DNA of 64,000 nt from Candidatus Eiseniibacteriota bacterium (GCA_942491735.1 CALOCN010000001.1:1030071-1094070); one strand, 5' to 3'; shown: positions 26,061 to 43,606, counted from the stretch's first letter. Made by a program: numbers and translations. Notes: a model not told the origin generated them from the sequence alone.

Positions 26061-27740
26061 TCAGCCGAGCTGGGTTGCCATGAACTCGGCAACCTGATCG
26101 GCCCCCTCGCGGGCCTTGGCCACCAGGGTTTCCGCCTTGGAACGGGTGGAGTCGAGCCACGCGTCGTCCCCCTGGATGCCTCCCAGGTTGATGAGCACGT
26201 TGTAGTAGGCCCCTTCCGCGCAGGCGCGGGCGGCCAGCGCGGCAACGCCGGCATCGCTGACCGAGTTCGGGTTACCGTGCTGCACGCAGGTCAGGGCCAA
26301 CCCGAAGATCGGTACGGTGCGCTCGAGCACCCGCAGGGGAACCCGGGTTGCGCCCCGGTTGGCCTCCATGAGCGCCTGGTTCTTGGCGTTCATTTCCTCT
26401 TCCGTGGTGGCGCGGGTGCGGATGGCGTCCATGACCTTGTTGAAGGCGGCCGTATCCTCGTCGACCGCGCGCAGGAGCTGGTCCTTGATGTCCTGGGCAT
26501 CCTCGGCGATGTCCGCCATGCGTTCCCAGTGCTCCTCGTGCCCCGCCCGGCCCAGGGTCAGGTTGGCCACCATGCTGGTCAGGGCCGCTCCCAGCGCGCC
26601 GCACAACGCGGCCACGCTGCCGCCGCCGGGAGCCGGGGCGTCGGTGGAGAGTTCGTCGGCGAACTCGGCCAGGGTCCGGGACGCCAGCCGGTTGGCTCCG
26701 GAGTCGCGGGCGAGGCGGAACTCGATGATCTTCTCGTCCGGGTCGAACGCGGCGATCTCCCTTAGGCCCAGGGACTGGATCGCGGTCTCGACGACCTGAC
26801 GCACCGGGATACCGGTCGACTTGCCTTGCCGCTTGAGATAGTGCTTTCCCGCCTCCAGCATCGGCTCCAGGGGAATGAGCCCCACCAGCTCCGATCCGGT
26901 GACCCGCAGCCCCCGCTTGCGCGCTTCCTCCTCGATGACATCGAAGGCGGTGTGGGGCGGGGTGATCTTGGTGTTGACGAGGTTGATGGAGACCTGGGCC
27001 CGGTCGTACTCCTCGATGAACCAGCCCACGCCCTTGAAGGCCTTCAGCCGGCCGGGGACCTTCACCGCGGTGCCGTCCGGGTGGCGGATGATCTCGCCGT
27101 GGGCGTCCCGCTTGGCGCGCCCCGCCTCGCGCACGTCCAGGGCGATGTCCTGGGCCAGGCGGCGGTCGCGGGTGTTGAGATTCACGTTGTAGGCGATGAG
27201 GAACTCCCGCGCGCCAATGGCCGTTGCTCCCGACTTGGCGTTGTGTACGGGCGGGCCGAAGTCCGGGGCCCACTGCGGGTTCGTCACCTTGGCCGGCAGC
27301 CCCTCGTACTCGCCCTGGCGTACGTCGGCCAGGTTCTGCCGCTCCGGCCTGGACGCCGCTTCCTCGTAGAGATAGACCGGGATCCCCAGCTCGTCACCGA
27401 CCCGCTTGCCCAGACGCCGGGCCAGCTCCGCGCACTCGGCCATGGTGATGTCCGACACCGGGACAAAGGGACAGACATCGGTGGCGCCCATGCGGGCGTG
27501 CGCTCCGGTGTGCTGGCGCATGTCGATGAGCGTCGCGGCGGTTCGGATCCCGTTGAACGCCGCCTCCAGGACTGCCTCGGGCTCACCGACGAAGGTCACC
27601 ACGGTCCGGTTGGTGGCCTGCCCCGGATCGACGTCCAGGAGCGTGGCTCCCTCGGTGTCGCCGATGGCGGCGGTGATCTGATCGATGACGGCCTTGTTGC
27701 GACCTTCGGAGAAGTTGGGGACGCACTCGACGATGGGCAT
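26061..27740 (-). CDS. ftcD: bifunctional glutamate formimidoyltransferase-cyclodeaminase
   Basis: Internal ATG at 27740; N-terminus MPIVECVPNFSEGRNKAVID and C-terminal PGGGSVAA / YYNVLINLGG closely resemble FTCD transferase and cyclodeaminase domains. Confidence 0.85.
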   Translation of the reverse strand: MPIVECVPNFSEGRNKAVIDQITAAIGDTEGATLLDVDPGQATNRTVVTFVGEPEAVLEAAFNGIRTAATLIDMRQHTGAHARMGATDVCPFVPVSDITMAECAELARRLGKRVGDELGIPVYLYEEAASRPERQNLADVRQGEYEGLPAKVTNPQWAPDFGPPVHNAKSGATAIGAREFLIAYNVNLNTRDRRLAQDIALDVREAGRAKRDAHGEIIRHPDGTAVKVPGRLKAFKGVGWFIEEYDRAQVSINLVNTKITPPHTAFDVIEEEARKRGLRVTGSELVGLIPLEPMLEAGKHYLKRQGKSTGIPVRQVVETAIQSLGLREIAAFDPDEKIIEFRLARDSGANRLASRTLAEFADELSTDAPAPGGGSVAALCGALGAALTSMVANLTLGRAGHEEHWERMADIAEDAQDIKDQLLRAVDEDTAAFNKVMDAIRTRATTEEEMNAKNQALMEANRGATRVPLRVLERTVPIFGLALTCVQHGNPNSVSDAGVAALAARACAEGAYYNVLINLGGIQGDDAWLDSTRSKAETLVAKAREGADQVAEFMATQLG

Positions 27741-27810
27741 GCGGGCTCCTGTGGGACATGGGCGAAAGGGGAAAGAGGCAACGAGTCTAGGGAGCGGGGG
27801 AGACGGGGTC

Positions 27811-28385
27811 AAGCACGCGCCCCGAGCATCAGCGACCACCCCAAGCGAAGGCCCCGCAGACCACCCGGGAGGGGCGCGAGGGGGTTCCGACGACGAAAGC
27901 CTGCGCGTGGAATGGGTCGGCCGGCGCCCCAGGCTACACGCTGCGAGAAGCAACGAGCGCAGCCGGCCGGGGCCCCATTTCGCGCGCAGTAGCGAGTGGA
28001 GACCGTCCAGTGGACGGTCTCCGCGAGCGACTGAGGAGGAGGAACCCCCTCGTGGCCCGGACGGTGGGAAGCGCGCGCCCCGGGCGGGTGGGAAGCAAGC
28101 GCCCCGGGCGGGTGGAAGCACGCGCCCCGAGCATCAGCGACCTCCCCAAGCGAAGGCCCCGCAGACCACCCGGGAGGGGCGCGAGGGGGTTCCGACGACG
28201 AAAGCCTGCGCGTGGAATGGGTCGGCCGGCGCCCCAGGCTACACGCTGCGAGAAGCAACGAACGCAGCCGGCCGGGGCCCCATTTCGCGCGCAGTAGCGA
28301 GTGGGGACCGTCCAGTGGACGGTCTCCGCGAGCGACTGAGGAGGAGGAACCCCCTCGTGGCCCGGACGGGTGGGAAGCGCGCGCG
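27811..28385. repeat. tandem direct repeat: two copies of a ~305-bp unit, each carrying an 11-bp-stem hairpin
   Basis: Copy 1 27811-28115, copy 2 28116-~28385; 3 substitutions over ~270 aligned bp by eye; hairpins GGAGACCGTCC-AGT-GGACGGTCTCC at 27998-28022 and 28303-28327 (copy 2 has A to G giving a G-U wobble); junction is 2.5 copies of a ~25-bp GGGAAGC..GCGCCCCGGGCGGGTG motif. Confidence 0.85.
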
Positions 28386-28513
28386 TCAGGCGGGTGCGAA
28401 GCGCCGCCTCCCGGATGGTGTGGAGGGCCCCTTGCCCGGTGGGATGGGCGCGGATTGCGAAACTGCTAGACTGCGAATGCCCCCCGTCACTCGACCCCGC
28501 CGCGGAGGACGCC

Positions 28514-29449
28514 ATGCGTACGCCAGTTGCCCTGCTTGCCGCCACCATGCTTCTTGCCGCCGCAACCGCGAGCGCCCAGCCCTGCTGCAGTCTTCCGGAC
28601 AACGGCACCGGCACCGCCGACTTGCCGCCCTCCTGTCCCCCGACCGGATACCTGGGCACCCTGCAGGTCATCGACGGCCTTCCCGCCGGGGGAACCCTGG
28701 CCCTGGAAGCGACCCTGAGCAACTTCGTTGCCTCGTCGGTTCCCGGCGGGTCGCTGGGGGGCACCATCGAGACCTGGACCGCCTCGGTCACGCTGCAGGT
28801 GACGGGCGGTGGCACGCTGGCCGGATTCAACCGGGTCATCGTCATGCCGGTCACGGGGGAGACCCACAGTGGGCCACGCACTCCGGGGGATGCCGTCCAG
28901 ACCGTCCCCATTCGGGTCACTGCGTTCGACGGATTGCTCACCGGCGACTCGGATTTTTCCCTCCTCCAATGGGAACGGGATCTCAACCTGAGCCCCGGTC
29001 AGACCACGCTCAGTCGTCAGGGGGGACCCGGGACCGATTTCGAGGCGAGCAGTTTCTTCGACTACCGCTATCGGATCCAGTTCGAGGGGCAGTACGAGAG
29101 TGCGTGGCTCGACGGGTACCGCGGGATCACCCAGGACCTGGAGGCGCGGTTCGATCTTTGCCCGGCCACCGCCTCGACCCCCGGCGTATCGTCTGGCCTG
29201 CGCCCCATCGCGCGTCCCAACCCCATGCGGTCCCTGACCCATCTGGACATTCCGGATGACCTGCAGGCTCACGTGGTGGAGGTGTTCGACACGCGAGGCC
29301 GGTTGTTGCGGCGGATCCAGCCGGAGGGAACCCGGGTGATCTGGGATGGCCGGGATGTGCTGGGCGTTCCCGCACCGGCCGGGGTCTATCTCCTGCGGGT
29401 GCGCGGCACGCGCGAGTCCCGCTCGGTGCGTGTGATCAAACTGCCCTGA
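28514..29449 (+). CDS. secreted protein with C-terminal FlgD-Ig/T9SS-like domain
   Basis: Internal ATG 28514 with GGAGGA 5 nt upstream; signal peptide MRTPVALLAATMLLAAATASA; C-terminal RPNPMRS...VIWDGRDVLGVPAPAGVYLL. Confidence 0.65.
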   Translation: MRTPVALLAATMLLAAATASAQPCCSLPDNGTGTADLPPSCPPTGYLGTLQVIDGLPAGGTLALEATLSNFVASSVPGGSLGGTIETWTASVTLQVTGGGTLAGFNRVIVMPVTGETHSGPRTPGDAVQTVPIRVTAFDGLLTGDSDFSLLQWERDLNLSPGQTTLSRQGGPGTDFEASSFFDYRYRIQFEGQYESAWLDGYRGITQDLEARFDLCPATASTPGVSSGLRPIARPNPMRSLTHLDIPDDLQAHVVEVFDTRGRLLRRIQPEGTRVIWDGRDVLGVPAPAGVYLLRVRGTRESRSVRVIKLP

Positions 29450-30514
29450 CTACGGAACCCGCGCCGGCACCACGGTCAGGGCGATCGGTCCGTCCCCCCG
29501 GGCAATCATCTCCTGGGTGACGACGAGGGACCGGGTGTCGAGCACGATCACCGCATCGGCGTCGAAGTTCCCCAGATAGAGCCGCTCCTCCCAGAGCGCG
29601 ATTCCGGTGTACCCCGGGACGGTGAGCCGGTCGTCGGTTCCCAGGGAAACCGTGCGCAGGGTCAGGGTGTCGTAGGCGCGCACGCCGCCCCAGAAACCGG
29701 TCACGTAGGCGATGCCGTCCTCGTCCACCACCGCCCTGGCCGGGCCGCCGCCCAGATCCAGCGTGTCCAACACCGCCGAGCCCTCGGCGTTCAAGCGCAC
29801 GACCCGTCCGTTGTCCGTGTCGCGTTGATTGTTTCCGGTGCAGATCACGTGCAGACGCTCATCGCGTCCCAGGACGATCGACTGTGGGTTCGTGGGAACG
29901 GGGTGGCGGGCGAGCTCCACCAAGTCCGGAATGCGAAGCAGCACCACATAGCCCTGCCCGTAGTCCCCCTCGGTTCCGTTGAACCCGGTCAACGTCACGG
30001 CCAGGCGGTCCACCCCGGCCCAGATCCCTTCCAGCGCCGGCCCCACCGTGACCCGCCGCACCACGCGCATTGCGGCCAGGTCCAGCTCCACCACCTCGCC
30101 GCTGACGAACGTGGTCACCCACGCCCGGTTCGCATCGGTGGGATCCACGGTCAGCTCCCAGGGGTTGCTGCCGGCACCGATCTGGATACAACCGAGGGTC
30201 CTGCCGGTCAGCGGATCCACCACGCTCACCGTATTGTCCCCCGAGTTCACCACCACGAGGCGGTCCCCGGCGACGTCCACGTCGTTGGGCACCTGACCCG
30301 TGAGCCCGGTCGTGTTGATGGGTGTGGCCTGCTCGCCCAGGGTGGCCGCCCACCACGTTTCCCCCAGGCTGTTGGCCACCACGAGGTGCGCGGCATCCGG
30401 GGACAGGGGCGGCCCCGTGTCCCCCTCGATGGGACAGGCCCCGGTAGGCAGCGTGTCCTGCGAGGAACAGCCGGCGAGGACCCACAACACGGCGGCGAGA
30501 ACCAGCGTCTTCAT
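29450..30514 (-). CDS. lipoprotein, YVTN-type beta-propeller
   Basis: Internal ATG at 30514 (ATGA overlap with upstream gene); lipobox VLAGC; repeats of VVNSGDNTVSVVD type. Confidence 0.65.
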   Translation of the reverse strand: MKTLVLAAVLWVLAGCSSQDTLPTGACPIEGDTGPPLSPDAAHLVVANSLGETWWAATLGEQATPINTTGLTGQVPNDVDVAGDRLVVVNSGDNTVSVVDPLTGRTLGCIQIGAGSNPWELTVDPTDANRAWVTTFVSGEVVELDLAAMRVVRRVTVGPALEGIWAGVDRLAVTLTGFNGTEGDYGQGYVVLLRIPDLVELARHPVPTNPQSIVLGRDERLHVICTGNNQRDTDNGRVVRLNAEGSAVLDTLDLGGGPARAVVDEDGIAYVTGFWGGVRAYDTLTLRTVSLGTDDRLTVPGYTGIALWEERLYLGNFDADAVIVLDTRSLVVTQEMIARGDGPIALTVVPARVP

Positions 30515-32043
30515 CGTGATCGCACCACGCGTCCCACGGAGTGCCAGCCGGTGCCGGTGCGTGCAGCCAGCAGATACACGCCGGGCGGGACCGGGACGCC
30601 GTGCTCGTCGCGGCCGTCCCAGACGGATTCCCCGTTGCTCACCCGCAGGGTCGCCCGCAGACGGCCATGGATGTCGAACACGGAGAGGGAGCGTGTGTCG
30701 GAATCGAGCGCGCTCAGCACGGTGCGGGAGCGAAACGGGTTGGGATAGGCATGGACGAGGACCCGCGGGGTGACGGTCGAGGTGGCCGTCGATGGATCCT
30801 GGGCGGCGCGAAAGTAGATCTCCTCCTTGGTGTGCCGGGTGTCCTGCCACAGCACGAAGACGCGTCCGGCGCCGTCGGCGTGCAGGGTGGGCCGGGACGA
30901 CTTGCCCGAAACGCCGAAGCTGATCTGGGTGTCGCCGGCCCCGGTGGAGTCCCACCCGGCCCCCGCCGCAGCGCTCTGATAGAACACCTGCCGGTTGAAC
31001 ACCGACACCCGTCCATCCTGCCACGCCACATGGCGGCGGCCGGAGGGGTCCACGCTGATATCCGGCTCTTCCGCGCCCACGGCGGCGGGGGAGACGCGGG
31101 TCGGCGGGCCCCATACCCCGCCCGGGGTGCGCTCCCGCAGATAGACCGCCTTGGTTCCCTCCCGCGGATCGGCCCACACCGCGACCAGGGTGCCGTCCGG
31201 CGCCACATCCAGGGCGACCCCGTCCGCCGCGGCGCTGGGAGGGGAGAGGGTGTCGGGGGCCGACCATGCGTCTCCCGGGGGGCGGTGCCGATAGAGGATA
31301 CGGAACCCTCCGTTGGCGTTGTCCCGCCATGCCGCATGCAACGCTCCGTCCGGTCCGCTGGCCAGGGCGGGGAAATTGGAATCGCTGGGGTTCGCCGAGA
31401 CGTTCTCGTCCGGACCGTCACCCGGGGTCGTGTCCCAGGCTCCACCGGTTCGGCTCTTGAACAGGATTTCCGCGTTATCCCCGTCGTAGCGGAAGTCGTA
31501 CCAGGCCACATGCGCGGTGCCGTCCGGTGCAACGACCAGGTTCGGCAGGTATGAGTTGTCCCCGTCGGTCTCGGGATGCGCGGTCGTGGTGAGGCGGGTC
31601 TCGGTGGTGCTGTCCCCCCACGCCTCGCCGCCCGCGCGCACCTTGGTGAACAGCTCCAGGTTGTTGATGCCGGCAACCCGATAGTCGTGCCACACCATGA
31701 GCAGGGTGTCGCCCGGCAACGTGACCAGGGAGGGGAACTTCGCCCCCAGGCCTTCCCCGATGTAGGTCGCGTTGAACACCACCGCGGTCTCGTCCGGTCC
31801 CCAGACCCCGCCCAACTCCCGCGTGCGGGTGTTGATCTGGAAGTTGGAGTTGGGGCCGTCCTGTTCGGCCCATGCCGCGGTGAGTCGTCCCCACGAATCC
31901 ATGGCCAACGCGCCGTGATTCAGCCCGGTCTCGCTGACCGTCCCCTTCGTGGTGAGTCGTTCCTCCGGACCCCAATCCAGAGCCCGGGCCGGGCTGCCCA
32001 GGGCCATCCATGCCAGCGTGAGGAGGCAAACCCCGCGCCTCAT
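30511..32043 (-). CDS. secreted repeat protein (DG..HVAW.D repeats, probable beta-propeller) with C-terminal FlgD-Ig/T9SS-like domain
   Basis: Internal ATG at 32043 overlapping TonB-receptor stop (ATGA); signal peptide MRRGVCLLTLAWMALGSPARA; C-terminal YPNPFRS...VWDGRDEHGVPVPPGVYLL. Confidence 0.65.
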   Translation of the reverse strand: MRRGVCLLTLAWMALGSPARALDWGPEERLTTKGTVSETGLNHGALAMDSWGRLTAAWAEQDGPNSNFQINTRTRELGGVWGPDETAVVFNATYIGEGLGAKFPSLVTLPGDTLLMVWHDYRVAGINNLELFTKVRAGGEAWGDSTTETRLTTTAHPETDGDNSYLPNLVVAPDGTAHVAWYDFRYDGDNAEILFKSRTGGAWDTTPGDGPDENVSANPSDSNFPALASGPDGALHAAWRDNANGGFRILYRHRPPGDAWSAPDTLSPPSAAADGVALDVAPDGTLVAVWADPREGTKAVYLRERTPGGVWGPPTRVSPAAVGAEEPDISVDPSGRRHVAWQDGRVSVFNRQVFYQSAAAGAGWDSTGAGDTQISFGVSGKSSRPTLHADGAGRVFVLWQDTRHTKEEIYFRAAQDPSTATSTVTPRVLVHAYPNPFRSRTVLSALDSDTRSLSVFDIHGRLRATLRVSNGESVWDGRDEHGVPVPPGVYLLAARTGTGWHSVGRVVRSR

Positions 32044-34016
32044 GATCCGGCCGGAGTCCAGCGCACGCCCAGACGAATCACCCGCCCGGTGGTGGCATAG
32101 CCGCGCAGATCCTCGTAGGCCACCGCGCCCAGATTCTCCCCCTCGACCTCCAGCCGCACCCGTGGGGTGACCGCGAACCGCAGCCGGGCATGCCAGAGCG
32201 TGTAGCCGGGTTGCCACTTCGTGTTGGCCGCGGTGACCGGCACCGCGCTGGTGGTCCGCGCACCGGCGGCGGCGGACCAGGGGCCGTGGGTCAGCGAAAG
32301 CTCGGCGAATGCGGTGGTGGCGGCGCGCCCCACCAACTGACGACCACCGGTCACCGGATCCCCGGTGGCATCCTCGGCTTCGACCCAGGTCAGGGACCCA
32401 TCCAGCCGCCAATCCAGGGAACCGGTGTTGAAACCCACCGAGGCATCCGACTCCACGCCGCGAAAGGTAGCCTGGGCCACGTTGTGTGGTCGCCACACCC
32501 CGTCCGCTCCGGGGACCCACTGGATCAGGTCATCCACCCGCGAGGCGAACAGACCAACCTGGGCCCGGGAGCCTTTCCATGTTCCTTCCAGTCCCAGGTC
32601 GGCGTCGTAGGCACGCTCGGGACGGAGGTCGGGGTTGCCGGCCGCACTGGCCCGGGCCGGCCAGAAGAGATCGTCGAAGGTGGGGGGGCGAAACCCGGTT
32701 CCCAGGCCGCCCCGGGCCCGCAACGAGGTGGTGTCGTCCAGTTCCCAGGATCGGGTGAGCGTGACCCGGGCGCTCGGCTCGGGGGAGAGCCCCTCGATCG
32801 CGTCGCCGCGACCGGCCAAGGTGATCCCCCACGCGCCCCGGGTCAGACCCAGTTCCGCACCCAGGGATCCGCGCGGACGGGTGCGGGTTCCATCGGTCGT
32901 GCTCTCCAGACGGTCGATCGCCGCTTCCGAACGGATGTCCAACGACGCGTTGTCCAGGACCTGGGCCCACTCGAGGGCGGCGCGCCCGCGCTCGTTGCGG
33001 TGGGTGTCGTCGATCGCCCCCAACGGACTGCCCGGATCGCCGTAGTGACGGCGAAAGGACTGCCCGCTGAGATCCAGGGTCCAAAGACCCGGCAGGTCGC
33101 TTAGCGTGGCTCCGCGCAGGGTGGCCACTGCTTCGGCGAAGGTGTCTTCCCGCATGGCCTCGGGCGAGGGAAAGAATCGGGACCCGGGCACATCCCGTTT
33201 GTCCCTGCGTGCCTCCACCGAGAGCTCCAGTGCCCCGGCCCAGGTCGGGTGATGGGACACCCGGGCGCGCAACCCGCCGGTGCGCACCGAGCCCTGGAGT
33301 TCCCCAAGGATCGGCGAGGCCGTTTCCAGTCGTAGCGCGGTCTCCCCGGACCAACGACCCGAAGCCACCCCGCCGCGGGCCCAGAGCAATCCGCGCTCCT
33401 GGGTTCCGGCCATGATCCGCAGGGATGCGTTGGTCTCCCGGTCCTGACGTCGCACGAGATTGACCGCGCCCCCCAGGGCATAGAATCCGTACTGGGCTCC
33501 CACGCTTCCGCGGCTCACCTCGATGCGCTCCAGCCCATCGGGATCCAGGGCGTACAGATCCACCGCGCCACCCTGGGCCGAGTTGAGCGGCCGGCCGTCC
33601 AGCATTACCGCCACCCGGTCGGCACGGTAGCCGCGGATGGAAACGACCTGGCTCGCCCCGTCGCCCAGACCGGTCACCCGCACTCCGGCCACCGGGGATA
33701 GGGCCTGCCCCAATTCCACCGGATCCAGCCGTTCCAACCACGCGCGATCCAGCACGGTGCGTGGGCCCAGTGTGGGCCGACCCACCGCGACCCGCGGGGC
33801 CTCGGTGCGTACGACCGGAAGGGTGTATACGGCCAGGGTGTCCGTGCGGGCCGTGGAATCGCGAAGGGCGGCCGACGTGGGAGCCGGTGCAAGCACGGTT
33901 GTGGAACGAGCCCCGATTCCCGGTCCCAGGACCGAGGATCGGAGGGCAGGGGCCGAAACGGATGCAGACCCCAGGACCACCACGCCAGCCGCCAACGCGA
34001 TCCGGAAACGTGTCAT
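32040..34016 (-). CDS. TonB-dependent outer-membrane receptor
   Basis: 658 aa; signal peptide; TonB-box-like TLPVVRTEA; plug region VVSIRGYRADRVAVMLDGRPLNSAQGGAVDLYALDPDGLERIEVSRG. Confidence 0.8.
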   Translation of the reverse strand: MTRFRIALAAGVVVLGSASVSAPALRSSVLGPGIGARSTTVLAPAPTSAALRDSTARTDTLAVYTLPVVRTEAPRVAVGRPTLGPRTVLDRAWLERLDPVELGQALSPVAGVRVTGLGDGASQVVSIRGYRADRVAVMLDGRPLNSAQGGAVDLYALDPDGLERIEVSRGSVGAQYGFYALGGAVNLVRRQDRETNASLRIMAGTQERGLLWARGGVASGRWSGETALRLETASPILGELQGSVRTGGLRARVSHHPTWAGALELSVEARRDKRDVPGSRFFPSPEAMREDTFAEAVATLRGATLSDLPGLWTLDLSGQSFRRHYGDPGSPLGAIDDTHRNERGRAALEWAQVLDNASLDIRSEAAIDRLESTTDGTRTRPRGSLGAELGLTRGAWGITLAGRGDAIEGLSPEPSARVTLTRSWELDDTTSLRARGGLGTGFRPPTFDDLFWPARASAAGNPDLRPERAYDADLGLEGTWKGSRAQVGLFASRVDDLIQWVPGADGVWRPHNVAQATFRGVESDASVGFNTGSLDWRLDGSLTWVEAEDATGDPVTGGRQLVGRAATTAFAELSLTHGPWSAAAGARTTSAVPVTAANTKWQPGYTLWHARLRFAVTPRVRLEVEGENLGAVAYEDLRGYATTGRVIRLGVRWTPAGS

Positions 34017-34017
34017 C

Positions 34018-35529
34018 TCAGCGAACGACCGCTACCCGGGTCACTGCGGTGTGGCTGCCGTCTGTCAGGTGAACGAAGTAGATGCCGTTGGCGAACGGGG
34101 TGGTGTCCAGGGCGAGGGCACCGTCGGCCACCCCGTCGCGGGACAGGAGCACCCGTCCGCGCACATCGACGAGACGCACCGTGGCCTTTCCCTGGATGCC
34201 GCGCAGGGCGAGCCGCAAGGCACCGCGGGAGGGGTTGTCCAGGGCGCGCGCCGCCAGCGGCAACGCGGCCACCGTGATCCGGCGCTCCCCCAGGGTCTCC
34301 AGTCCTCCGGTGCGAAGCCGGGCGACCAGACGGTAGGCCACCTCCCCGCGCACGGGGTCCTCGTCGCGCCAGGTACCCCTTTCCGCGGCAACGAGGTCCG
34401 CGACGGTTCGCCAGTCGGCTGCGCCCCCGCTGCGCTCGACCTGGATGCGGGAGGCTTCGTGGACGTCGCCCAGGGTCCAGTCGAGCCGGACTCCGGCCTC
34501 GGTGGCTTCCACCGAGAACGTGGTGAGCTGCACCGGCACCGGCTTGTCCTCATGGACGGCCAGACAGCCGGGACCGTCGCCGGTGGCATACGTGTCGATG
34601 ACCTGCTCATCGCTCAGGCGAAGCCGCACCAGGAGGTCGTCGGCGAACAGGGTGAAGAGGAGGTTGCCCATGCCGTCGAACGCGAGTCCGGTGTACCCGG
34701 TACCTCCGACCAGCAGAGCGTTGCCGGAATCCCGGATCACCGTGCGGGTATCGGCGTCGTAGGTGTAGAGCCCCCCGAAGTAGTCCGTGGTGACCGCGAG
34801 TCCGTCGCCGATGGCGATCTTGCCCGGGCTCCCTCCCAGGACCAGGGTGTCCTGCGGCGCGTGCGTGGCCCCGTCGATGACGTGCGCCTCCCCGAACACG
34901 GAGAAGTAGTTCCCGGTGCACATCACGTGGAGGTCGTTGTTCCAGGCGGCCAGCCACTGGGGGTTCATCCCCACCGCTAGGGTGTCGGTAATCGCGAGCG
35001 TACCCGGGTCCAGGGCGAACACCGTCCCCGGGTCGTAACCGAAGTCGCTGGGCCGGAACCCGGTGTTGGCCACATAGCAGACGCCGTTCAGGAGGAGCAC
35101 GTCTTCCGGTGAGCCGCCGACCCCCACCCGGCCGGTCTCGGTGCCGGTGGCGTCGAAGCGGACCAGTTCGTGGGTGTTGAGCAACGACACGTAGACGTTG
35201 CCCGCGTCGTCCACGTCGAGGGCGTAGGGGTTTGAGCCGGCTCCCGTGGAGAGGGTCTGCAACAGCGTGAGCGTGGCGGTGTCCAGGACCTCCACCGCGT
35301 CCGCGCCGGAGACCACCACGTAGAGCTTGCCCGCCTTCACCACCGCCTCGCTGGGAAACCCGGCGAAGGCGTGCGGTCCCAGTTGCACCGCGCCCGTGGT
35401 CAGGTCCGCGGTGGAGATCGTGTTGTCGATTCCGTTCATGACGAGGGCGGTCGGTGTGGCGTGAGCCACGGGGGATTGGACCCCGGGGGCGAGCAGAAGC
35501 AAGAAGCAGACAGCAATGAAGCGTGGCAC
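34018..35529 (-). CDS. secreted YVTN-type beta-propeller protein with C-terminal sorting-like domain
   Basis: GTG start at 35529; signal peptide MPRFIAVCFLLLLAPGVQSPVAHA; stop 1 nt before receptor start; C-terminal ...GIYFVHLTDG... Confidence 0.65.
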   Translation of the reverse strand: MPRFIAVCFLLLLAPGVQSPVAHATPTALVMNGIDNTISTADLTTGAVQLGPHAFAGFPSEAVVKAGKLYVVVSGADAVEVLDTATLTLLQTLSTGAGSNPYALDVDDAGNVYVSLLNTHELVRFDATGTETGRVGVGGSPEDVLLLNGVCYVANTGFRPSDFGYDPGTVFALDPGTLAITDTLAVGMNPQWLAAWNNDLHVMCTGNYFSVFGEAHVIDGATHAPQDTLVLGGSPGKIAIGDGLAVTTDYFGGLYTYDADTRTVIRDSGNALLVGGTGYTGLAFDGMGNLLFTLFADDLLVRLRLSDEQVIDTYATGDGPGCLAVHEDKPVPVQLTTFSVEATEAGVRLDWTLGDVHEASRIQVERSGGAADWRTVADLVAAERGTWRDEDPVRGEVAYRLVARLRTGGLETLGERRITVAALPLAARALDNPSRGALRLALRGIQGKATVRLVDVRGRVLLSRDGVADGALALDTTPFANGIYFVHLTDGSHTAVTRVAVVR

Positions 35530-35614
35530 GTCGAAAACCTCCCGTTCGAGATGCAGGGACGTCTTCGGGGCGGGGAACGCCGGACGAGTGACGCGGGGGG
35601 ATCAGCGCACGGCA

Positions 35615-35634
35615 CGGAACCACGGGGGGTTCCG
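35615..35634. promoter_or_regulatory. perfect inverted repeat CGGAACC-N6-GGTTCCG in divergent intergenic region
   Basis: Read directly: cggaaccacggggggttccg; lies between the minus-strand receptor operon (start 35529) and the ECF sigma gene (start 35952); function unknown. Confidence 0.3.
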
Positions 35635-35951
35635 ACCCGGCGCCGGTCGGCGTCGAACCACGTCATGCGTCCTCAGCACTCCTCGAAGGACGTCAGACAT
35701 CGTCCGTGGCCGGTCTCCTGACTTGCGGGTCATCCTCGGGTCGCCCCTTCCCGGAAACGTGTTCCAGTGGGATTCTTGCGACCGTTGTCACCGCTTACAG
35801 TGGCGGGTCCGTGCCGGATTCTCACCGGCTTCCCGTGCACCACGGACGAGATGTGAGTGAGGCGCAGTCTAGGGATGCGGGAGGGGGGGGTCAATGAGGA
35901 ACAGGGAATCGGTTACGGTTAGGCGGGATACAGGTTCGGGAAGGAGCAGCG

Positions 35952-36737
35952 GTGGCCGACCAATCACAGTGGAATCTCCCCGCCGATCAGGCGGTCGATC
36001 GACTCATGCGCGACTACGGGGGACAGATCTACCGTCTTGGGCTCTCGGTTTGCGGGAACCCGGACGAGGCCCAGGATCTGGTCCAGGACGTGTTCCTGGC
36101 CGCCTATCGCAAGTGGGACCAGTTCGAGGGGCGTTCCAAGCCCACCACCTGGCTCTTCACCATTGCCACCCGGCGCTGTCAGCGGTTACACCGCAAGCGG
36201 GCCGGGGAACCCCGGCATATGGAGTCCCTGGACGAACTCCTGCCCTTTGACGAACCCACCCTGCCGGTCCTCGACGACGGCCGGTCGCGCGGGGAAGTGG
36301 AACGGCAGGTCGGAACGGCCATCGCCACCCTTCCCGAGGCGTTTCGGGTTCCGCTCCTCCTCAAGGACATCGTGGGACTTCCGGTGAGCGACGTGGCCGA
36401 GATCCTGGGCCTCAAGGAGGCCACCGTGAAGACCCGTCTCCACCGCGCCCGGCTCAAGCTGCGCAAGGTCATCGTGGAGAACCTTCCCCGGGAAACCGAC
36501 GCGGCTCCCGCACCGGCCTATCCGCTTCAGGTGTGTCTGGACCTCCTGGAGGCCAAGCAGGAGTCGCTCGATCGCGGCGTCCCCTTCGCCGAGGGGGACG
36601 CGGTGATCTGCGAACGGTGTCGCAGCGTCTTTCGCACCCTGGACCTCGGGGCGGATGTGTGCCTGACCCTGGGGGGCGGCGATCTCCCCGCGGGCCTGGC
36701 CGAGAGCCTGCGCAAGCGGATTCACGAGTCACCCTAA
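35952..36737 (+). CDS. ECF-type RNA polymerase sigma factor with ~80-aa Cys-containing C-terminal extension
   Basis: GTG start with AAGGAG 5 nt upstream; sigma-2 region (DLVQDVFLAAYRKWDQF) and sigma-4 HTH (VSDVAEILGLKEATVKTRLHRAR); extension with C-x28-CxxC-x11-C. Confidence 0.75.
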   Translation: MADQSQWNLPADQAVDRLMRDYGGQIYRLGLSVCGNPDEAQDLVQDVFLAAYRKWDQFEGRSKPTTWLFTIATRRCQRLHRKRAGEPRHMESLDELLPFDEPTLPVLDDGRSRGEVERQVGTAIATLPEAFRVPLLLKDIVGLPVSDVAEILGLKEATVKTRLHRARLKLRKVIVENLPRETDAAPAPAYPLQVCLDLLEAKQESLDRGVPFAEGDAVICERCRSVFRTLDLGADVCLTLGGGDLPAGLAESLRKRIHESP

Positions 36738-36779
36738 CTCGTTTCATGGCAACTGATTAAGAAATTGTCCGCTCCCAAC

Positions 36780-36806
36780 GGGAACCTCCCGACGCCTGCG
36801 TGTCTC
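36780..36806 (+). promoter_or_regulatory. candidate ECF-type promoter (GGGAAC-N16-GTCTC) upstream of sulfur-oxidation genes
   Basis: gggaac ctcccgacgcctgcgt gtctc, about 37 nt upstream of ATG 36843; motif match only. Confidence 0.35.
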
Positions 36807-36842
36807 TCACCTCATGAAGCACGTATCCACCCAGGAGGACCC

Positions 36843-38231
36843 ATGTTTTTCAAGCAGTACTATCTCGATTGCCTATCCCACGCCTCGTACATGATTGCCG
36901 ACGAGACCACCGGAAGCGCGGTGGTCGTCGATCCGCAACGGGATATCGACCACTATCTCGCCGACGCCCAGCTGCACGGTCTTCGCATCGAGCACGTTCT
37001 GTTGACCCACTTCCACGCCGACTTCGTGGCCGGCCACCTCGAGCTGCGTGACCGGTTCGGCGCCACCATTCATCTGGGCCGGCGGGCCGAGGCCGAGTTC
37101 CCCTTCCACGCGGTGGGAGACGGAGACCGCATCGAACTGGGACGCGTGGTGCTCGAGGCGATGGAGACGCCCGGCCACACCCCGGAGTCCACCTCGTTCG
37201 TGGTCATCGATCGCGATCGCGGCGAAACGCCCTACGCCGTGTTGACCGGCGACACCCTGTTCATCGGCGATGTCGGGCGACCCGACCTGCTCGCGTCGCT
37301 GGGGCACACCGCCGACGAGTTGGCCGACATGCTGTATGACTCGGTGACCAACCGCCTGATGCGGCTCCCGGACGACACGCTGGTCTATCCCGCTCACGGG
37401 GCCGGCTCCATGTGCGGCAAGAACCTGGGCACGGAGACCGTCTCCACCCTCGGTGAGCAACGCCTGATGAATCCCGCGCTCAAGTTCGACGACCTGGCCT
37501 CCTTCAAGGCCTATGTCACCTCGGAACAGCCGGCGGCGCCCGCGTACTTTGCCTTCGATGCGGTGCTCAACCGCAAGGAACGCCCGGTCCTGGACACCAA
37601 TCTGGAGCACGCGAATCGTTCGCTGACCCTGGACCAGGTTCTCACCCATCGCGAGCAGGGTGCCCAGCTCCTGGATACCCGGCCGGCGGACACGTTCGCC
37701 CGGGGACATCTGGTCGGAAGCCTCAATGTTCCCCTGGAGGGGCGCTACGCCACCTGGGCGGGTACCCTGCTCGACCCCGAACGTCCCATTGTCCTCGTTG
37801 CCGATCCCGGTCGCGAGGAAGAGTCGGCCATGCGTCTGGGACGCATCGGATTCGATTCGGTGGTGGGGCATCTCGAGGGTGGGTTCAACGCCACGCGCCG
37901 TCGCCAGGACGTGGTGGCCCGGGCGGAGCGACTCAGCGGTCCGGACCTGGGCGAGGCACTCGGGTCGTCGGGTCCTCCGGTCCTGCTGGACGTGCGCACC
38001 GCGGGAGAGCGGAACGCCGCTCCCATCCCGGGCAGCCTGACCATTCCTCTCGACGAGCTGCCGTCCCGTCTCGGCGAGATTCCCCGGGATCGACCCGTGG
38101 TCCTCGTCTGCGCCGGCGGGTATCGCTCGGGCATCGCCAACAGCGTGCTCATGCAGAACGGCTTTACCCGTACCGCGGATCTGTTGGGAGGGTATCCTAC
38201 GTGGGCTTCCCACATGGCTCCCTCGTCCTGA
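36843..38231 (+). CDS. persulfide dioxygenase (MBL fold) fused to two rhodanese domains (CstB-like)
   Basis: Internal ATG 36843 with AGGAGG 4 nt upstream; metallo-beta-lactamase motif LTHFHADFVAGH; C-terminal rhodanese active-site loop VCAGGYRSG, first rhodanese-like domain lacks the Cys. Confidence 0.8.
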   Translation: MFFKQYYLDCLSHASYMIADETTGSAVVVDPQRDIDHYLADAQLHGLRIEHVLLTHFHADFVAGHLELRDRFGATIHLGRRAEAEFPFHAVGDGDRIELGRVVLEAMETPGHTPESTSFVVIDRDRGETPYAVLTGDTLFIGDVGRPDLLASLGHTADELADMLYDSVTNRLMRLPDDTLVYPAHGAGSMCGKNLGTETVSTLGEQRLMNPALKFDDLASFKAYVTSEQPAAPAYFAFDAVLNRKERPVLDTNLEHANRSLTLDQVLTHREQGAQLLDTRPADTFARGHLVGSLNVPLEGRYATWAGTLLDPERPIVLVADPGREEESAMRLGRIGFDSVVGHLEGGFNATRRRQDVVARAERLSGPDLGEALGSSGPPVLLDVRTAGERNAAPIPGSLTIPLDELPSRLGEIPRDRPVVLVCAGGYRSGIANSVLMQNGFTRTADLLGGYPTWASHMAPSS

Positions 38232-38235
38232 CCTT

Positions 38236-38835
38236 GTGGCAAGCACTTTCATCCCCGGAGGCATCGTGTCCGTTGCATCTGTTCCCGCCCGAATCCAGAC
38301 CGTAAGCCCGGCCGTCCTGCACGAGTGGCTGGAGTCCGACGAGGCCATCGTGGTCGACGTCCGCGAAGCCACCGAACATGCGGCCGAGCGCATCCCCGAG
38401 AGCTGGCTGGTGTCGCTCTCCGCCTTCGACGCCACCCGTTTGCCTTCGGTCCATGAAGGCAAACGCCTGGTGCTGCATTGCCAGTCCGGCAACCGCTCGG
38501 CCAAGGCGGCCAAGGTCCTGCTCAATTGCGGGTTCGAGGAAGTCATTCACCTGGAGGGGGGCATCGGGGCCTGGAAGCAGGCCGGACTCCCGGTCGAGTC
38601 CAGCGGCAAGGCTCCGCTCAACCTCATGCGACAGGTCCAGATCGTGGCCGGGTCCATGACGCTGCTCGGCACGGCCCTCGCCGTGGCGGTGTCGCCGGCC
38701 TGGATGGTCCTGCCGGCGATCGTCGGCGCGGGGTTTCTCTTTGCCGGGGTCACCGGGACCTGCGGGATGGCCACCCTGCTGTCACTCCTGCCGTACAACA
38801 AACAGGCCTGCCCGCTGCCAGTGAAGGGGCGCTAG
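38236..38835 (+). CDS. rhodanese-domain sulfurtransferase with C-terminal membrane hairpin (YgaP/DUF2892-like)
   Basis: GTG start; rhodanese active site HCQSGNRS; hydrophobic C-terminus. Confidence 0.7.
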   Translation: MASTFIPGGIVSVASVPARIQTVSPAVLHEWLESDEAIVVDVREATEHAAERIPESWLVSLSAFDATRLPSVHEGKRLVLHCQSGNRSAKAAKVLLNCGFEEVIHLEGGIGAWKQAGLPVESSGKAPLNLMRQVQIVAGSMTLLGTALAVAVSPAWMVLPAIVGAGFLFAGVTGTCGMATLLSLLPYNKQACPLPVKGR

Positions 38836-41669: not shown

Positions 41670-41777
41670 GAATGGGACTCCTGAGGTTGCGGTGGGCCTA
41701 CGAGCATACCACTTTGATCTCTTATCGAACAAAGTCTTTAGTCAACTGCAACCGGTTGCTGGATATGCGTTTGTGGC

Positions 41778-43547
41778 CTATTGTCGCCCGAACAGGTTCA
41801 GCAACCCCAGGGTAAGCCATGGCACGTAGGTGATGAGCAGGACCCCCAGACCCAGGATGGCCAACATCGGCAGTGCCGCCCGGTAGATGCTCAACAACGG
41901 CTTCTCGAACCGGTAGGACGCGAAGAACAGGTTGAGACCGACCGGTGGGGTGAGGTATCCGAGCTCCAGGTTGGCGATGAAGATGATGCCGAGATGGATC
42001 GGGTGGATATCGAAGGCCGCGCCGAGATCCTTGATCAGCGGCACCACCACCACCGTAGCCGAGAAGATGTCCATCATGCAGCCCACCAGGAGCAGGAAGA
42101 CGTTCATGGTGAGCAGGAAGAGCCACTTGGACTCGATGTTGTTCTCCACCCAGTCCAGCAGGTGGGCCGGAACCTCGGCGTCCACCATGAAGCTCGAGAA
42201 TCCCATGGCCACGCCCAGGATCAGGATGACGCCGCCGATCAGGGCGATGCACTTGGTAAACACCCGGGGAAGGTCGCCGCGAAGCGAGAGATCCCGGTGG
42301 ATGAAGGTCTGGGTCACGAACGTATAGATCACCGTCACCGCGGAGGCCTCCACGATGGTGGCCATCCCGGTGTACAGGGCGATGAGCGGCACGAGAGGGA
42401 CTCCCAGTTCCCACTTCGCCTCCCACAGCGCGCTCATGGCCTCGCGGAAGTGGAACGCACTGCGGGTTACCCCCGAAGTGATCCCGGCCCGCATGCCCCA
42501 GGCCGCGACCATGGCGACGAGGACCACACCCGGAACGATGCCGCCGAGGAACAGATCCTCGATGGAGATGCCGGCGACGATGGCGTAGAGAATGAGCGGA
42601 AGCGCCGGGGGAAAGAGCAGTCCCAGCGAGCCCGATCCGGTGAGCAGCCCCAGGGAAAACCGGTCCGCATAGCCGTCCTGTCGCAGCGCCTGGTAGAGCA
42701 GCCCGCCCACCGCGAGAATCGTCACCCCGGAGCCGCCGGTGGGGATGGTGAAGAAGACGCAGATCAGAACGCAGACCAGTGCGGTTCCGCCCGGAATGAA
42801 ACCGAAGAAGGCCCTGAAGAATCGCAACAGTCGGTGCGACGAGTTCCCTTCGGCCAGAAGGAAACCCACCAGGGTGAACATGGGAAGGGCGGCCAGGGTC
42901 GGGTTGACCGCCAGCCGGTAGGTCTCCACCAGAACCGCGGCCGGTGTGGTCCCGTCCAGCATGAAGAGCAGGGCGGCGATGCCGCCGAGAGCCGCAAAGA
43001 TGGGGCCGCCGGCAAAGGTGGCGGCGAGGATGAGGATCAAGCCCGGAAGGAGTGCACTCCCTTCGATCAGCTCGTAGTTTCCACCCAGGAAGATCCCGCC
43101 GGCGAAGGCGGCGACGGCAAGGCCCTTCCCGATCCACCCCCCCTCGTTCTTCAGGGCAAGCCGAAGACCGATCAGGGCAAACGCCGCGGGAAGCACCACC
43201 TGGGTCGCCCACACCGGGATGTTGGCGGTGACAAAGGTGGGGAACTCCCGCTCGATCTGGACCAGTTCGAGACCGCCCCGTAGCAGCACCCCGGAGATGA
43301 GGGCGGCGACCAGGTTGGCAAAGCCCAGGAGAAGGGTCTTGGAACGACCCTCCCGGAGGATCTCCTTGGAGGCGAAGGAGAGCAGATTCCCTTCACGGGC
43401 AGCGAGGGCCGAGCCCAGGAACCCCACCCACAGGGTGAGGTGCTGGGTAATGGGCCCGGATCCACGCACCCCCCCCTCAAAGAAATTACGGGCAATGATG
43501 TTGGCGATGGGCAGGATGACCATGGCGGCGAGACAAAGGCTCACCAC
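41778..43547 (-). CDS. TRAP transporter fused small/large permease (DctQ-DctM fusion)
   Basis: 589 aa, hydrophobic throughout; N-terminal DctQ-like 4-TM segment followed by DctM-like domain. Confidence 0.8.
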   Translation of the reverse strand: MVSLCLAAMVILPIANIIARNFFEGGVRGSGPITQHLTLWVGFLGSALAAREGNLLSFASKEILREGRSKTLLLGFANLVAALISGVLLRGGLELVQIEREFPTFVTANIPVWATQVVLPAAFALIGLRLALKNEGGWIGKGLAVAAFAGGIFLGGNYELIEGSALLPGLILILAATFAGGPIFAALGGIAALLFMLDGTTPAAVLVETYRLAVNPTLAALPMFTLVGFLLAEGNSSHRLLRFFRAFFGFIPGGTALVCVLICVFFTIPTGGSGVTILAVGGLLYQALRQDGYADRFSLGLLTGSGSLGLLFPPALPLILYAIVAGISIEDLFLGGIVPGVVLVAMVAAWGMRAGITSGVTRSAFHFREAMSALWEAKWELGVPLVPLIALYTGMATIVEASAVTVIYTFVTQTFIHRDLSLRGDLPRVFTKCIALIGGVILILGVAMGFSSFMVDAEVPAHLLDWVENNIESKWLFLLTMNVFLLLVGCMMDIFSATVVVVPLIKDLGAAFDIHPIHLGIIFIANLELGYLTPPVGLNLFFASYRFEKPLLSIYRAALPMLAILGLGVLLITYVPWLTLGLLNLFGRQ

Positions 43548-43563
43548 CAGGTCCTCGGTTCGG

Positions 43564-43599
43564 CGGAGTCCCGTCCGCAGGGCCCCCCCCTTGGACTCC
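43564..43599 (-). promoter_or_regulatory. intercistronic stem-loop between TRAP binding-protein and permease genes
   Basis: ggagtcc ...22 nt... ggactcc inverted repeat in the 57-bp gap. Confidence 0.3.
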
Positions 43600-43606
43600 G
43601 TTGGCG

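Follow-up and report, generated by a model that had tools for sequence, protein, structure and literature searches.

A probable corrinoid-uptake operon, likely from Candidatus Eisenbacteria, preceded by a cobalamin riboswitch and coupling a BtuB-like receptor to BtuG-family propellers

Introduction

The closest described systems to the locus presented here are the vitamin B12 (cobalamin) transporters of Bacteroides, in which surface-located BtuG propellers have a very high affinity for B12 and sit as a lid on the receptor BtuB (PMC6143338, PMC10404256). The reference loci are BtuB1G1, BtuB2G2 and BtuB3G3 of Bacteroides thetaiotaomicron, represented by PDB entries 8BLW, 8BMX and 8P97/8P98 (PMC6143338, PMC10404256). 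Among 313 gut genomes, BtuG was reported from Bacteroidetes only. The Bacteroides B12-binding lipoproteins BtuK1/BtuK2, BtuH and BtuJ are regarded as accessory components and have been proposed to relay corrinoids to BtuG/BtuB (reviewed in PMC13616437).

The operon described here lies in a 64-kb stretch of DNA, referred to as the window. An earlier sequence-only reading had proposed an uncharacterised outer-membrane capture and uptake module with its ligand left open. The notion of such a module is borne out by propellers that are coupled to a TonB-dependent receptor (TBDR) and conserved with it; the description as uncharacterised no longer holds, since a cobalamin riboswitch, a BtuB-like receptor and BtuG-family propellers together point to a ligand and a kind of system that are already known. 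We estimate at roughly 75% the probability that the operon, under cobalamin-riboswitch control, brings corrinoids such as vitamin B12 through the outer membrane. Points that weigh against this reading, detailed below, are the low scores of the receptor for BtuB, the shortfall of the two propellers on DUF5074, the missing ligand loop and replaced arginines, the lack of an export signal on D, the absence of btuFCD and of B12-dependent enzymes from the window, the leader hairpin without a U tract, and a gene C without B12-binding relatives.

The operon and its conservation

The four genes of the operon are the following:

34018..35529, minus strand: gene A (503 aa, GTG start), secreted BtuG-family propeller with a T9SS-type tail
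32040..34016, minus strand: gene B (658 aa), TonB-dependent receptor, BtuB-like
30511..32043, minus strand: gene C (510 aa), secreted seven-bladed propeller belonging to an uncharacterised family, with a T9SS-type tail
29450..30514, minus strand: gene D (354 aa), BtuG-family seven-bladed propeller lipoprotein

The open reading frames and junctions agree with the earlier description of four minus-strand genes joined by a 1-nt gap (A/B, TGA-g-ATG) and two ATGA overlaps (B/C and C/D), and the domain assignments then made for the four products also stand on the basis of Pfam/NCBIfam-type domain matches, repeats and lipobox. Comparison of gene neighbourhoods, which had been put forward as a check, revealed that the order is kept in relatives, so that the module withstands the refuting condition set for it in that description: the riboswitch followed by A-TBDR-C-D is present at 10 additional, distinct loci (L002, L006, L007, L009, L012, L013, L015, L016, L017 and L019), from Candidatus Eisenbacteria metagenome-assembled genomes (MAGs) and MAGs labelled Gemmatimonadota, among which protein identity falls to 29-40%. 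Because this order is conserved, the four-gene arrangement is not due to chance.

As in B. thetaiotaomicron BtuB-BtuG, a cobalamin riboswitch lies upstream, a TBDR is co-encoded with seven-bladed propellers of the YVTN/YncE type whose homology to BtuG spans the full length, and a single operon encodes several accessory extracellular proteins. The differences start with the phylum, given that the loci come from Candidatus Eisenbacteria and Gemmatimonadota-labelled MAGs, and BtuG relatives outside Bacteroidota are new here. In addition, two BtuG paralogues flank the receptor, the gene right after it is C and not a BtuG, and, unlike Bacteroides B12 loci, the operon contains no btuFCD, BtuH (a distinct B12-binding domain) or BtuJ (DUF4465). 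Neither btuFCD genes nor B12-dependent enzymes were found within the 64-kb window. That a TonB-dependent barrel is encoded together with a surface partner, a possible lid, also recalls the SusCD/RagAB 'pedal-bin' transporters; unlike in those systems, the receptor has no N-terminal CarboxypepD_reg domain and, as the sequence-only reading had noted of the partners, no SusD-like protein is present.

Leader RNA and regulation

Upstream of gene A the following elements were located:

35866..35894, minus strand: promoter-like site TTGACC-17-TAGACT, with its 3' end 7 nt upstream of the riboswitch match; a consensus match, putative in function
35691..35859, minus strand: cobalamin (B12) riboswitch aptamer, Rfam RF00174 (covariance-model match)
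35530..35690, minus strand: leader/expression platform (predicted folds)
about 35669-35691, minus strand: conserved hairpin with CCUUCGAGG loop (predicted fold)
about 35603-35645, minus strand: long imperfect hairpin containing GGAACC-N6-GGTTCC (predicted fold)
35616..35633: the GGAACC-N6-GGTTCC inverted repeat itself, in the transcribed leader (read from the sequence)
about 35532-35567, minus strand: hairpin pairing the Shine-Dalgarno GGGAGG at 35538-35543 (predicted fold)
35952..36737, plus strand: ECF sigma gene, divergently adjacent to the operon

The leader element is a cobalamin riboswitch. Its match to RF00174 reaches 117.4 bits against a gathering score of 31.5 (E 8.9e-29) and spans model positions 1-189 of 189 without truncation, and its B12 box AGUCAGGAGACCGGCC aligns with the RF00174 consensus AGCCAGGAGACCuGCC. 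The aptamer sits on the same strand as the operon, between the promoter-like site and gene A, with its 3' end 161 nt 5' of the start of A. Homologous aptamers occupy the same place ahead of the 10 orthologous operons, and every same-order relative with upstream DNA available carries a cobalamin riboswitch. Besides the promoter-like site, 29200-36100 contains no sigma-70-like site (0.4 expected), and L002, L012 and L009 carry near-identical TTGAC(C/T)-17-TAxxxT sites immediately upstream of the aptamer. As a member of this riboswitch family, the leader is predicted to bind cobalamin and to repress the operon, which would account for the regulation of the operon. The sequence-only reading had overlooked this riboswitch, which lies directly upstream of the operon.

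What that reading had offered instead was a module with an unassigned ligand, and it had pointed to the ECF sigma gene and GGAACC-N6-GGTTCC in the divergent upstream region, which might be taken as regulator and operator. The sigma gene is indeed divergently adjacent and the repeat is indeed perfect, as had been claimed, but such regulatory roles are not supported. No ECF homologue accompanies any orthologous operon, so that sigma linkage is not conserved, and the receptor, consisting only of Plug and barrel, lacks the N-terminal signalling domain of a FecIRA-type TonB-dependent transducer. The sigma gene is moreover followed on its own strand, 28 nt on, by metallo-beta-lactamase/rhodanese genes. 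The repeat, for its part, lies inside the riboswitch leader and is not statistically special, being one of 38 perfect 6-N6-6 inverted repeats in the window. It stands 58 nt 3' of the aptamer, at the position where relatives carry a terminator hairpin (in L002, L012 and L009, a hairpin plus U tract 33-45 nt past the aptamer), although in the window the U tract is missing. The inverted repeat is thus a leader-RNA hairpin and not an operator, and control by the sigma factor appears very improbable.

Regarding the mechanism of the switch, the CCUUCGAGG hairpin is kept in 12 of the 12 leaders compared. It may be proposed that at low intracellular cobalamin an open leader RNA would allow expression of all four genes, which are translationally coupled, and that under replete conditions the bound aptamer would turn expression off via leader-hairpin attenuation and/or sequestration of the ribosome-binding site.

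The receptor

Gene B encodes a receptor with a 22-strand-type barrel, in which Plug (residues 82-184, 78 bits) is followed by TonB_dep_Rec_b-barrel (258-629, 119.9 bits). Its best NCBIfam match is TIGR01779 TonB-B12 (E 1.5e-42), and its scores remain far below the BtuB equivalog cut-offs (146 vs 599.7 bits for TIGR01779, 89.6 vs 836 for NF007926). Sequence matches in the PDB comprise CirA and E. coli BtuB at about E 1e-17 (BtuB about 3e-17) as well as BtuB1/2/3 of B. thetaiotaomicron (BtuB1 7.5e-12). By position, B is under cobalamin-riboswitch control both in the window and in the orthologous loci. B is thus divergent as a receptor, and only the ranking of its matches and its context make it BtuB-like.

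The TonB box of E. coli BtuB is DTLVVTA. In B, a TonB-box-like DTLAVYT lies at residue 59, 23 residues ahead of Plug, and similar motifs are present in L006, L013 and L018. B resembles E. coli BtuB: both are small TBDRs (658 vs 614 aa) whose TonB box is of the DTLxV type and whose leader contains a cobalamin riboswitch. Unlike E. coli BtuB, which stands alone at the outer membrane, B is translationally coupled to three secreted or lipid-anchored propellers. Under the corrinoid-uptake reading, B would act as a BtuB-type channel energised by TonB.

The BtuG-family propellers A and D

A and D are paralogues (32% identity over 306 aa) that can be assigned, from profile comparisons, as divergent members of the BtuG family. 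A is composed of a seven-bladed YVTN/YncE-type propeller (about 25-330), a middle beta domain and a T9SS-type C-terminal sorting domain (432-500), and its PDB sequence matches include BtuG1 (8blw_B/8ptd). An exhaustive HMM search gathered 495 cluster representatives of the A/D family at E<=1e-30. A profile built from 78 members, A included (A4), matched BtuG1 (1.2e-26), BtuG3 (5.8e-22) and BtuG2 (2.6e-19 to 2e-17), each in one stretch along the entire propeller, and these three outscored all other characterised proteins except 1l0q; a D-family profile run against the PDB found BtuG1 at E 1e-15. The AF2 model of D (pLDDT 92.8, 28 strands) gave the same neighbours: in a Foldseek search of the PDB the top hit was 1l0q, a repeat-level match, followed by BtuG1/2/3 at ranks 2-13 (TM 0.67-0.78), and 17 BtuG1/2/3 chains are the nearest solved structures after 1l0q. 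Pfam DUF5074 (PF16819), whose gathering score is 27.2, is the family matched by BtuG1, a fragment of which reaches 29.5. On this model A attains only 15.4 bits and D gives no match; 15 of the 78 A/D-family members match at E<1e-3.

At the level of ligand contacts, BtuG2 hydrogen-bonds the corrin amides through Q93, N107, S131 and Q219 (bioRxiv 10.1101/2024.02.16.580637). When the sequences are aligned, these four positions are conserved in kind and correspond to N77 (67/78), S91 (76/78), N117 (72/78) and N209 (78/78), the most conserved polar residues of the A/D family. BtuG2 Y239 aligns with Y in A and in 62 of the 78 members, and with N in D. In the same type of comparison, the E55, G56 and F58 loop of BtuG2 (E-G-x-F, three ligand contacts) is a 5-residue insertion absent from the A/D family, and BtuG1 R141 and R244 align with W119 and T226 of D. 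This missing loop and the replacement of both arginines imply that the binding mode may differ or that one paralogue may not bind. A paralogue without B12 binding has a precedent in BtuK2 of Bacteroides (PMC13616437).

The lost contact loop would fit another explanation, namely that the operon is B12-regulated and imports cobalt, a corrin precursor or a lower-ligand base, with the propellers as metallochaperones or binding proteins for it. Cobalamin riboswitches also regulate cobalt transporters and B12-independent isozymes, and the D model resembles, less well than BtuG, the periplasmic zinc chaperone AztD (TM about 0.5). Against this explanation, the best family of B is a B12 receptor, the full-length profile homology is to BtuG1/2/3 and not to AztD, and the corrin-amide contact positions are precisely those that the family conserves best. 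Distant relatives argue in the same direction through their neighbours, which are BtuF-type binding proteins along with FecCD/ABC genes. Three members that share 25-26% identity with D belong to loci of the order riboswitch - TBDR - propeller - Peripla_BP_2 (BtuF-like) (L024, L025, L027), which run on with ABC_tran plus FecCD in L024 and with ABC_tran in L027. Import of such an alternative substrate consequently seems unlikely. A fourth distant member lies directly 3' of a TBDR at a contig end (L029). The receptors of L024, L025 and L027 carry CarboxypepD_reg, and B is 26-38% identical, over partial stretches only, to receptors of the wider propeller-family loci.

The cellular location of D is the basis of a further alternative. 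D has a lipobox (LAGC) whose Cys16 is invariant in 27 orthologues, and the residues that follow are SSQD, without a K-(D/E)2-type Bacteroidota lipoprotein export signal; D could face the periplasm because no such signal is recognisable. It might then be that only B transports B12, D being a BtuF-like periplasmic shuttle and A and/or C surface enzymes or adhesins that are merely co-regulated. The absence of btuF from the operon would fit with this, as would the BNR-type character of C, whose nearest folds are GH145, PL42, PL24 and sialidases. We regard such a division of labour as improbable, to much the same degree as the import of cobalt or a precursor. Under the preferred reading of corrinoid uptake, A, C and D would all be exposed at the surface, where D, through its lipid anchor, and A, through its T9SS-type tail, would capture corrinoids extracellularly and pass them to B, D being the likeliest lid on the receptor.

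Gene C and the T9SS-type tails

The product of gene C is made of seven 'P.l..dpdG.lHvaW.D.R' repeats with a faint BNR_4 match, followed by a T9SS tail (about 430-510). As regards a BNR/sialidase-type enzyme (GH33, GH145, PL42; Pfam BNR_4), C stays below the gathering score and shows no specific structural match. No B12-binding relative was found by sequence, profile or fold searches, no sequence relation to BtuK, BtuH or BtuJ was detectable in the searches run, and the BtuK chain 4R5O, the only one known to predate the structure library, does not appear within the best 50-60 fold matches. C thus represents a propeller family without a characterised relative, found only in this clade, and this seven-bladed family is new here. 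It is always alongside A/D-type propellers wherever the context is readable, and stays with them despite a rearranged order (L021) or an absent receptor gene (L008). C may be an additional surface or secreted propeller that takes part in capture or hand-off, as BtuH, BtuJ and BtuK do in Bacteroides. The likeness is one of concept, in that riboswitch-controlled B12 operons there also encode additional proteins of the cell surface, among them BtuK, a seven-bladed propeller of a second kind; unlike those proteins, C has a T9SS tail and not a lipobox.

T9SS-type tails replacing lipid anchors on two partners, A and C, are likewise new here. Bacteroides BtuG is lipid-anchored, whereas A, with a signal peptide of the ordinary kind and no lipid anchor, would be anchored or secreted via its C-terminal domain; Bacteroides species are a notable exception within Bacteroidota in that T9SS core genes are missing (PMC11285876). 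The TIGR04183 sorting domain scores 27.4 on A and, borderline, 23.3 on C against a cut-off of 23, and Pfam Por_Secre_tail on A lies just below its own (25.7 vs 27). No core T9SS genes were seen within the 64-kb window. As a tentative extension, and one we consider rather less probable than not, the operon might encode a three-propeller corrinoid relay via type IX secretion in Eisenbacteria-type bacteria, with C representing a new class, unrelated in structure, of extracellular proteins that bind B12 or hand it on ('cobalaminophore') and with T9SS-tailed BtuG relatives as a widespread, undescribed B12-scavenging device in non-Bacteroides FCB-group bacteria of soils and sediments. Across the 78-member family, a lipobox and a long tail hardly ever occur in one and the same protein, and FlgD_ig or T9SS tails are also carried by at least five other proteins of the window.

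Operon layout and upstream riboswitch

The four minus-strand ORFs at 29450-35529 form a vitamin B12 uptake operon of known kind, with a cobalamin riboswitch, a BtuB-like TonB-dependent receptor (TBDR) and BtuG-family propellers, in a lineage that is new for such systems. Its novelties are the anchoring mode and one partner, the product of gene C, which belongs to an uncharacterised family. The sequence-only reading was right in proposing a capture module; its suggestion that the module is uncharacterised is not supported.

34018..35529, minus: gene A, 503 aa, GTG start; YVTN/YncE-type repeats and a T9SS sorting tail
32040..34016, minus: gene B, 658 aa; Plug and barrel domains
30511..32043, minus: gene C, 510 aa from an ATG overlapping the stop of B; faint BNR_4 match and a T9SS tail
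29450..30514, minus: gene D, 354 aa from an ATG overlapping the stop of C; YVTN repeats after the lipobox LAGC

Inspection of the sequence confirmed the junctions reported earlier (TGA-g-ATG, ATGA and ATGA), and family-model searches bore out the earlier domain calls for all four products. The frames of A, B and C are backed by a third-codon-position GC screen (the window has 68% GC), in which the frame of D falls below the thresholds. A and D are paralogues with 32% identity across 306 residues.

The element missed by the sequence-only reading is the cobalamin riboswitch. An Rfam scan of the whole window gave as its sole match a complete aptamer on the minus strand at 35691-35859 (RF00174, 117.4 bits versus a gathering score of 31.5, E 8.9e-29), spanning model positions 1-189 of 189 and including an aligned B12 box. 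A single sigma-70-like site occurs in 29200-36100: TTGACC-17-TAGACT (35894-35866, minus), which ends 7 nt before this aptamer. The positions of both define a layout of promoter, riboswitch, 161-nt leader and A-B-C-D. Within the transcribed leader, the inverted repeat GGAACC-N6-GGTTCC (35616-35633) caps a longer imperfect hairpin (about 35603-35645), and a hairpin with the loop CCUUCGAGG directly after the aptamer is common to 12 orthologous leaders. Three loci of relatives (L002, L012 and L009) each display a TTGAC(C/T)-17-TA...T site just before the aptamer and a canonical terminator hairpin with a U tract 33-45 nt past it; the inverted-repeat hairpin of the window occupies the equivalent position but lacks the U tract. 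In the predicted fold of the window leader, the Shine-Dalgarno GGGAGG is paired within another hairpin. The most fitting interpretation places the inverted repeat within the expression platform of the riboswitch, where it would be a putative attenuator. A role as DNA operator, raised by its earlier description as an upstream motif, was rejected because the repeat lies inside the leader RNA at the relatives' terminator position, and because the window contains 38 perfect 6-N6-6 inverted repeats, which makes this one unremarkable as a DNA motif.

Conservation in relatives

Contigs encoding homologues of D and C were located, together with 12 species-representative genomes, which comprise Candidatus Eisenbacteria/Eiseniibacteriota MAGs, Gemmatimonadota-labelled MAGs and one WOR-3 MAG. 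Judged by the best relatives, the phylum of the window is probably Eisenbacteria. The four-gene arrangement is conserved in relatives, contrary to the condition under which the sequence-only reading would have been refuted. Searches by tblastn with the four window proteins, together with Rfam scans, identified ten further distinct loci in which RF00174 (77-112 bits) is followed by A-TBDR-C-D (L002, L006, L007, L009, L012, L013, L015, L016, L017 and L019), and protein identity across the conserved loci goes down to 29-40%. The same gene order is kept in L018, whose sequence ends 5' of A. In L008 (5984-10585) the riboswitch is followed by A-C-D, the receptor gene being absent between A and C and A apparently frameshifted, so that either the accessory trio can have a locus separate from that of the receptor or the L008 copy is undergoing decay. 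A different order occurs in L021 (6821-13180), where C is followed by a propeller (446 aa), a TBDR with an N-terminal CarboxypepD_reg domain (766 aa) and a second propeller (340 aa); the Rfam scan detected no cobalamin riboswitch at gathering score in this locus.

The receptor and its BtuG-related propellers

The best NCBIfam model for B is TIGR01779, the TonB-dependent B12 receptor (E 1.5e-42), with a score that falls well short of the equivalog cut-off. An exact look-up of the B protein returned no record. Its PDB sequence matches are headed by CirA and E. coli BtuB (E ~1e-17), and B. thetaiotaomicron BtuB1, BtuB2 and BtuB3 also appear among them. A TonB-box-like DTLAVYT precedes the Plug, and the domain search revealed no signalling extension.

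In single-sequence PDB searches, A and D each match 8BLW chain B and 8PTD/8PTF (E ~1e-8), which correspond to B. thetaiotaomicron BtuG1, alone and with BtuB1 (PMC10404256; bioRxiv 10.1101/2024.02.16.580637). D is modelled as a seven-bladed propeller (AF2, pLDDT 92.8) whose nearest PDB neighbours are the archaeal S-layer YVTN protein 1L0Q and then twelve chains that are all BtuG1/2/3 (TM 0.67-0.78); A was assigned by its paralogy to D and its family membership. An HMM search seeded by the D family and A, and run exhaustively, yields 495 cluster representatives at E<=1e-30, a number that grows to 8889 at E<=1e-10. The profile of 78 A/D family members (A4) aligns in one full-length stretch with BtuG1 (1.2e-26), with BtuG3 (5.8e-22), and with BtuG2 and the Bacteroides uniformis homologue 3DSM (2.6e-19 to 2e-17). 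Among characterised proteins, Lp49, hydrazine synthase beta and YncE come next, as partial matches. The Pfam model DUF5074 detects a BtuG1 fragment above threshold. In the 78-member set it matches 15 proteins; its score for A is only 15.4 bits, and it does not detect D.

Ligand-contact positions were mapped by HMM alignments to BtuG1 and BtuG3, with the numbering checked against the residues named in the papers (BtuG1 R141 and R244; BtuG3 E44, G45, F47, Q82, N96, S120, W138, W183, S184, Q208 and Y228, that is, BtuG2 minus 11). In BtuG2, the side chains of Q93, N107, S131 and Q219 hydrogen-bond corrin amides (bioRxiv 10.1101/2024.02.16.580637).

Table. Corrin-amide contacts of BtuG2, aligned residues of D, and conservation among the 78 family members
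Q93: D N77; N in 67/78
N107: D S91; S in 76/78
S131: D N117; N in 72/78
Q219: D N209; N in 78/78

These four residues of D are the most conserved polar residues in the family. BtuG2 Y239 is aligned to Tyr in 62 of the 78 members and in A, and to Asn in D. Two observations point the other way: R141 and R244 of BtuG1 are aligned to Trp119 and Thr226 of D, and the A/D family lacks the insertion of five residues that gives BtuG2 its E55-G56-x-F58 loop. As judged from these alignments, the ligand pocket of the family is plausibly retained but remodelled.

Distant family members and anchoring

Three distant members with 25-26% identity to D, two with T9SS tails (P0267 and P0273) and one lipoprotein from a Fodinibius MAG of the Balneolota (P0221), are each encoded between a TBDR gene, directly before, and a Peripla_BP_2 (BtuF-like) gene, after. 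RF00174 (91-102 bits) precedes the loci L024, L025 and L027:

L024, 5411-12161: riboswitch, CarboxypepD_reg-type TBDR, T9SS-tailed propeller, BtuF-like gene, then ABC_tran and FecCD
L025, 5449-10283: riboswitch, CarboxypepD_reg-type TBDR, T9SS-tailed propeller, BtuF-like gene
L027 (Fodinibius MAG), 5444-11922: riboswitch, CarboxypepD_reg-type TBDR, lipoprotein propeller, BtuF-like gene, ABC_tran

These loci are BtuG-type systems outside Bacteroides, apparently undescribed so far, and the neighbourhoods of the distant members argue that the whole family acts as a B12-transport accessory, the same genomic-context argument by which BtuG was originally defined (PMC6143338). A metagenome survey of the family, employing a pattern drawn from the T9SS tail, returned unrelated T9SS cargo in 77 of 80 loci. 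Its only informative locus, L029, holds a fourth family member at a contig end with the receptor directly before it; two partial matches free of a riboswitch (L035 and L069) were counted neither for nor against.

Short forms in the 78-member alignment (~340 aa) mostly carry a lipobox, and long forms (~430-550 aa) lack one and end in Por_Secre_tail/FlgD_ig tails. The window operon encodes one of each form, D with the lipobox and A with the T9SS-type tail. According to PMC11285876, Bacteroides spp. stand out from other Bacteroidota by having no T9SS core genes, and other FCB phyla may have such genes. At least five more window proteins bear T9SS/FlgD_ig tails, so such a tail would be a general export tag of the organism. 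FlgD_ig-type tails are found on these large secreted proteins, indicating heavy use of this C-terminal tag:

39627-41732: GH16 glucanase
51803-55252: 1149-aa FG-GAP repeat protein
58297-62742: 1481-aa beta-helix protein
62743-63696: 317-aa protein

Gene C

The product of gene C contains seven 'P.l..dpdG.lHvaW.D.R' repeats and a T9SS-type tail, and is modelled as a seven-bladed propeller (AF2, pLDDT 89.2). Its Foldseek neighbours are GH145, PL42, PL24 and sialidases (TM 0.5-0.67, 11-15% identity). A function as sialidase or glycoside hydrolase was rejected, since this likeness of fold is generic and searches against PDB sequences gave no matches. There are about 40 orthologues, and C adjoins A/D-type propellers in every locus with readable flanking genes (L022 and L023 end at the contig edge). 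It is this context that nominates the gene C family as a candidate B12-handling protein and provides concrete proteins for expression and testing.

Significance for B12 capture

Few microbes make vitamin B12 and many need it, which is why the mode of its capture shapes communities. Until now, the lipoprotein-assisted BtuB-BtuG system has been regarded as particular to gut Bacteroidetes. Among 313 gut genomes, BtuG was reported from Bacteroidetes only (PMC6143338), and a 2026 review that covers BtuH and BtuJ outside Bacteroidota does not do so for BtuG (PMC13616437). The literature searched did not link BtuG to Gemmatimonadota, Ignavibacteria, Chlorobi, Fibrobacteres or the FCB group, nor Eisenbacteria to T9SS. 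The present results suggest that the BtuG family is far larger than described (the 495 clusters at the stricter threshold), that it extends into other phyla of environmental bacteria, and that its anchoring comes in two versions, a lipid anchor or a T9SS tail. Genes next to cobalamin riboswitches that now carry the labels "YVTN/YncE family" or "hypothetical" would also become better annotated.

Neighbouring genes

The ECF sigma gene next to the operon had been considered as its regulator. This idea was rejected: tblastn of the relatives' loci found no homologue adjoining any orthologous operon, and the receptor is devoid of a signalling domain. The sigma factor, which has a Cys-rich C-terminal extension of ~80 aa, is followed on the same strand by the genes below, and 35952-38835 (plus) appears to be a sulfur/persulfide-stress unit in its own right, unconnected with the B12 operon.

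36765-38231, plus: metallo-beta-lactamase and rhodanese fusion, 28 nt after the ECF sigma gene
38236-38835, plus: rhodanese and YgaP membrane protein

Directly adjacent to the last base of D ends a convergent gene (28370-29449, plus) for a 359-aa protein of unknown family, whose T9SS tail matches TIGR04183 at 24.6 bits. The protein was not found at the equivalent position in relatives, L015 giving a weak tail-only match. Formiminotransferase-cyclodeaminase (FTCD; 26061-28121, minus) lies downstream of the operon, likewise in L002, L006 and L012; this folate/histidine-catabolism gene has no evident B12 link and probably reflects plain synteny. A TRAP transporter is encoded at 41778-45603 (minus), with a fused DctQ-DctM (655 aa), DctP and a TAtT-type T-component. 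Positions 1-24000 hold a long polysaccharide-biosynthesis cluster with glycosyltransferases, epimerases/dehydratases, Polysacc_synt flippase-like genes and PMT_2, and the genes around the operon are partly syntenic in L002 and L009.
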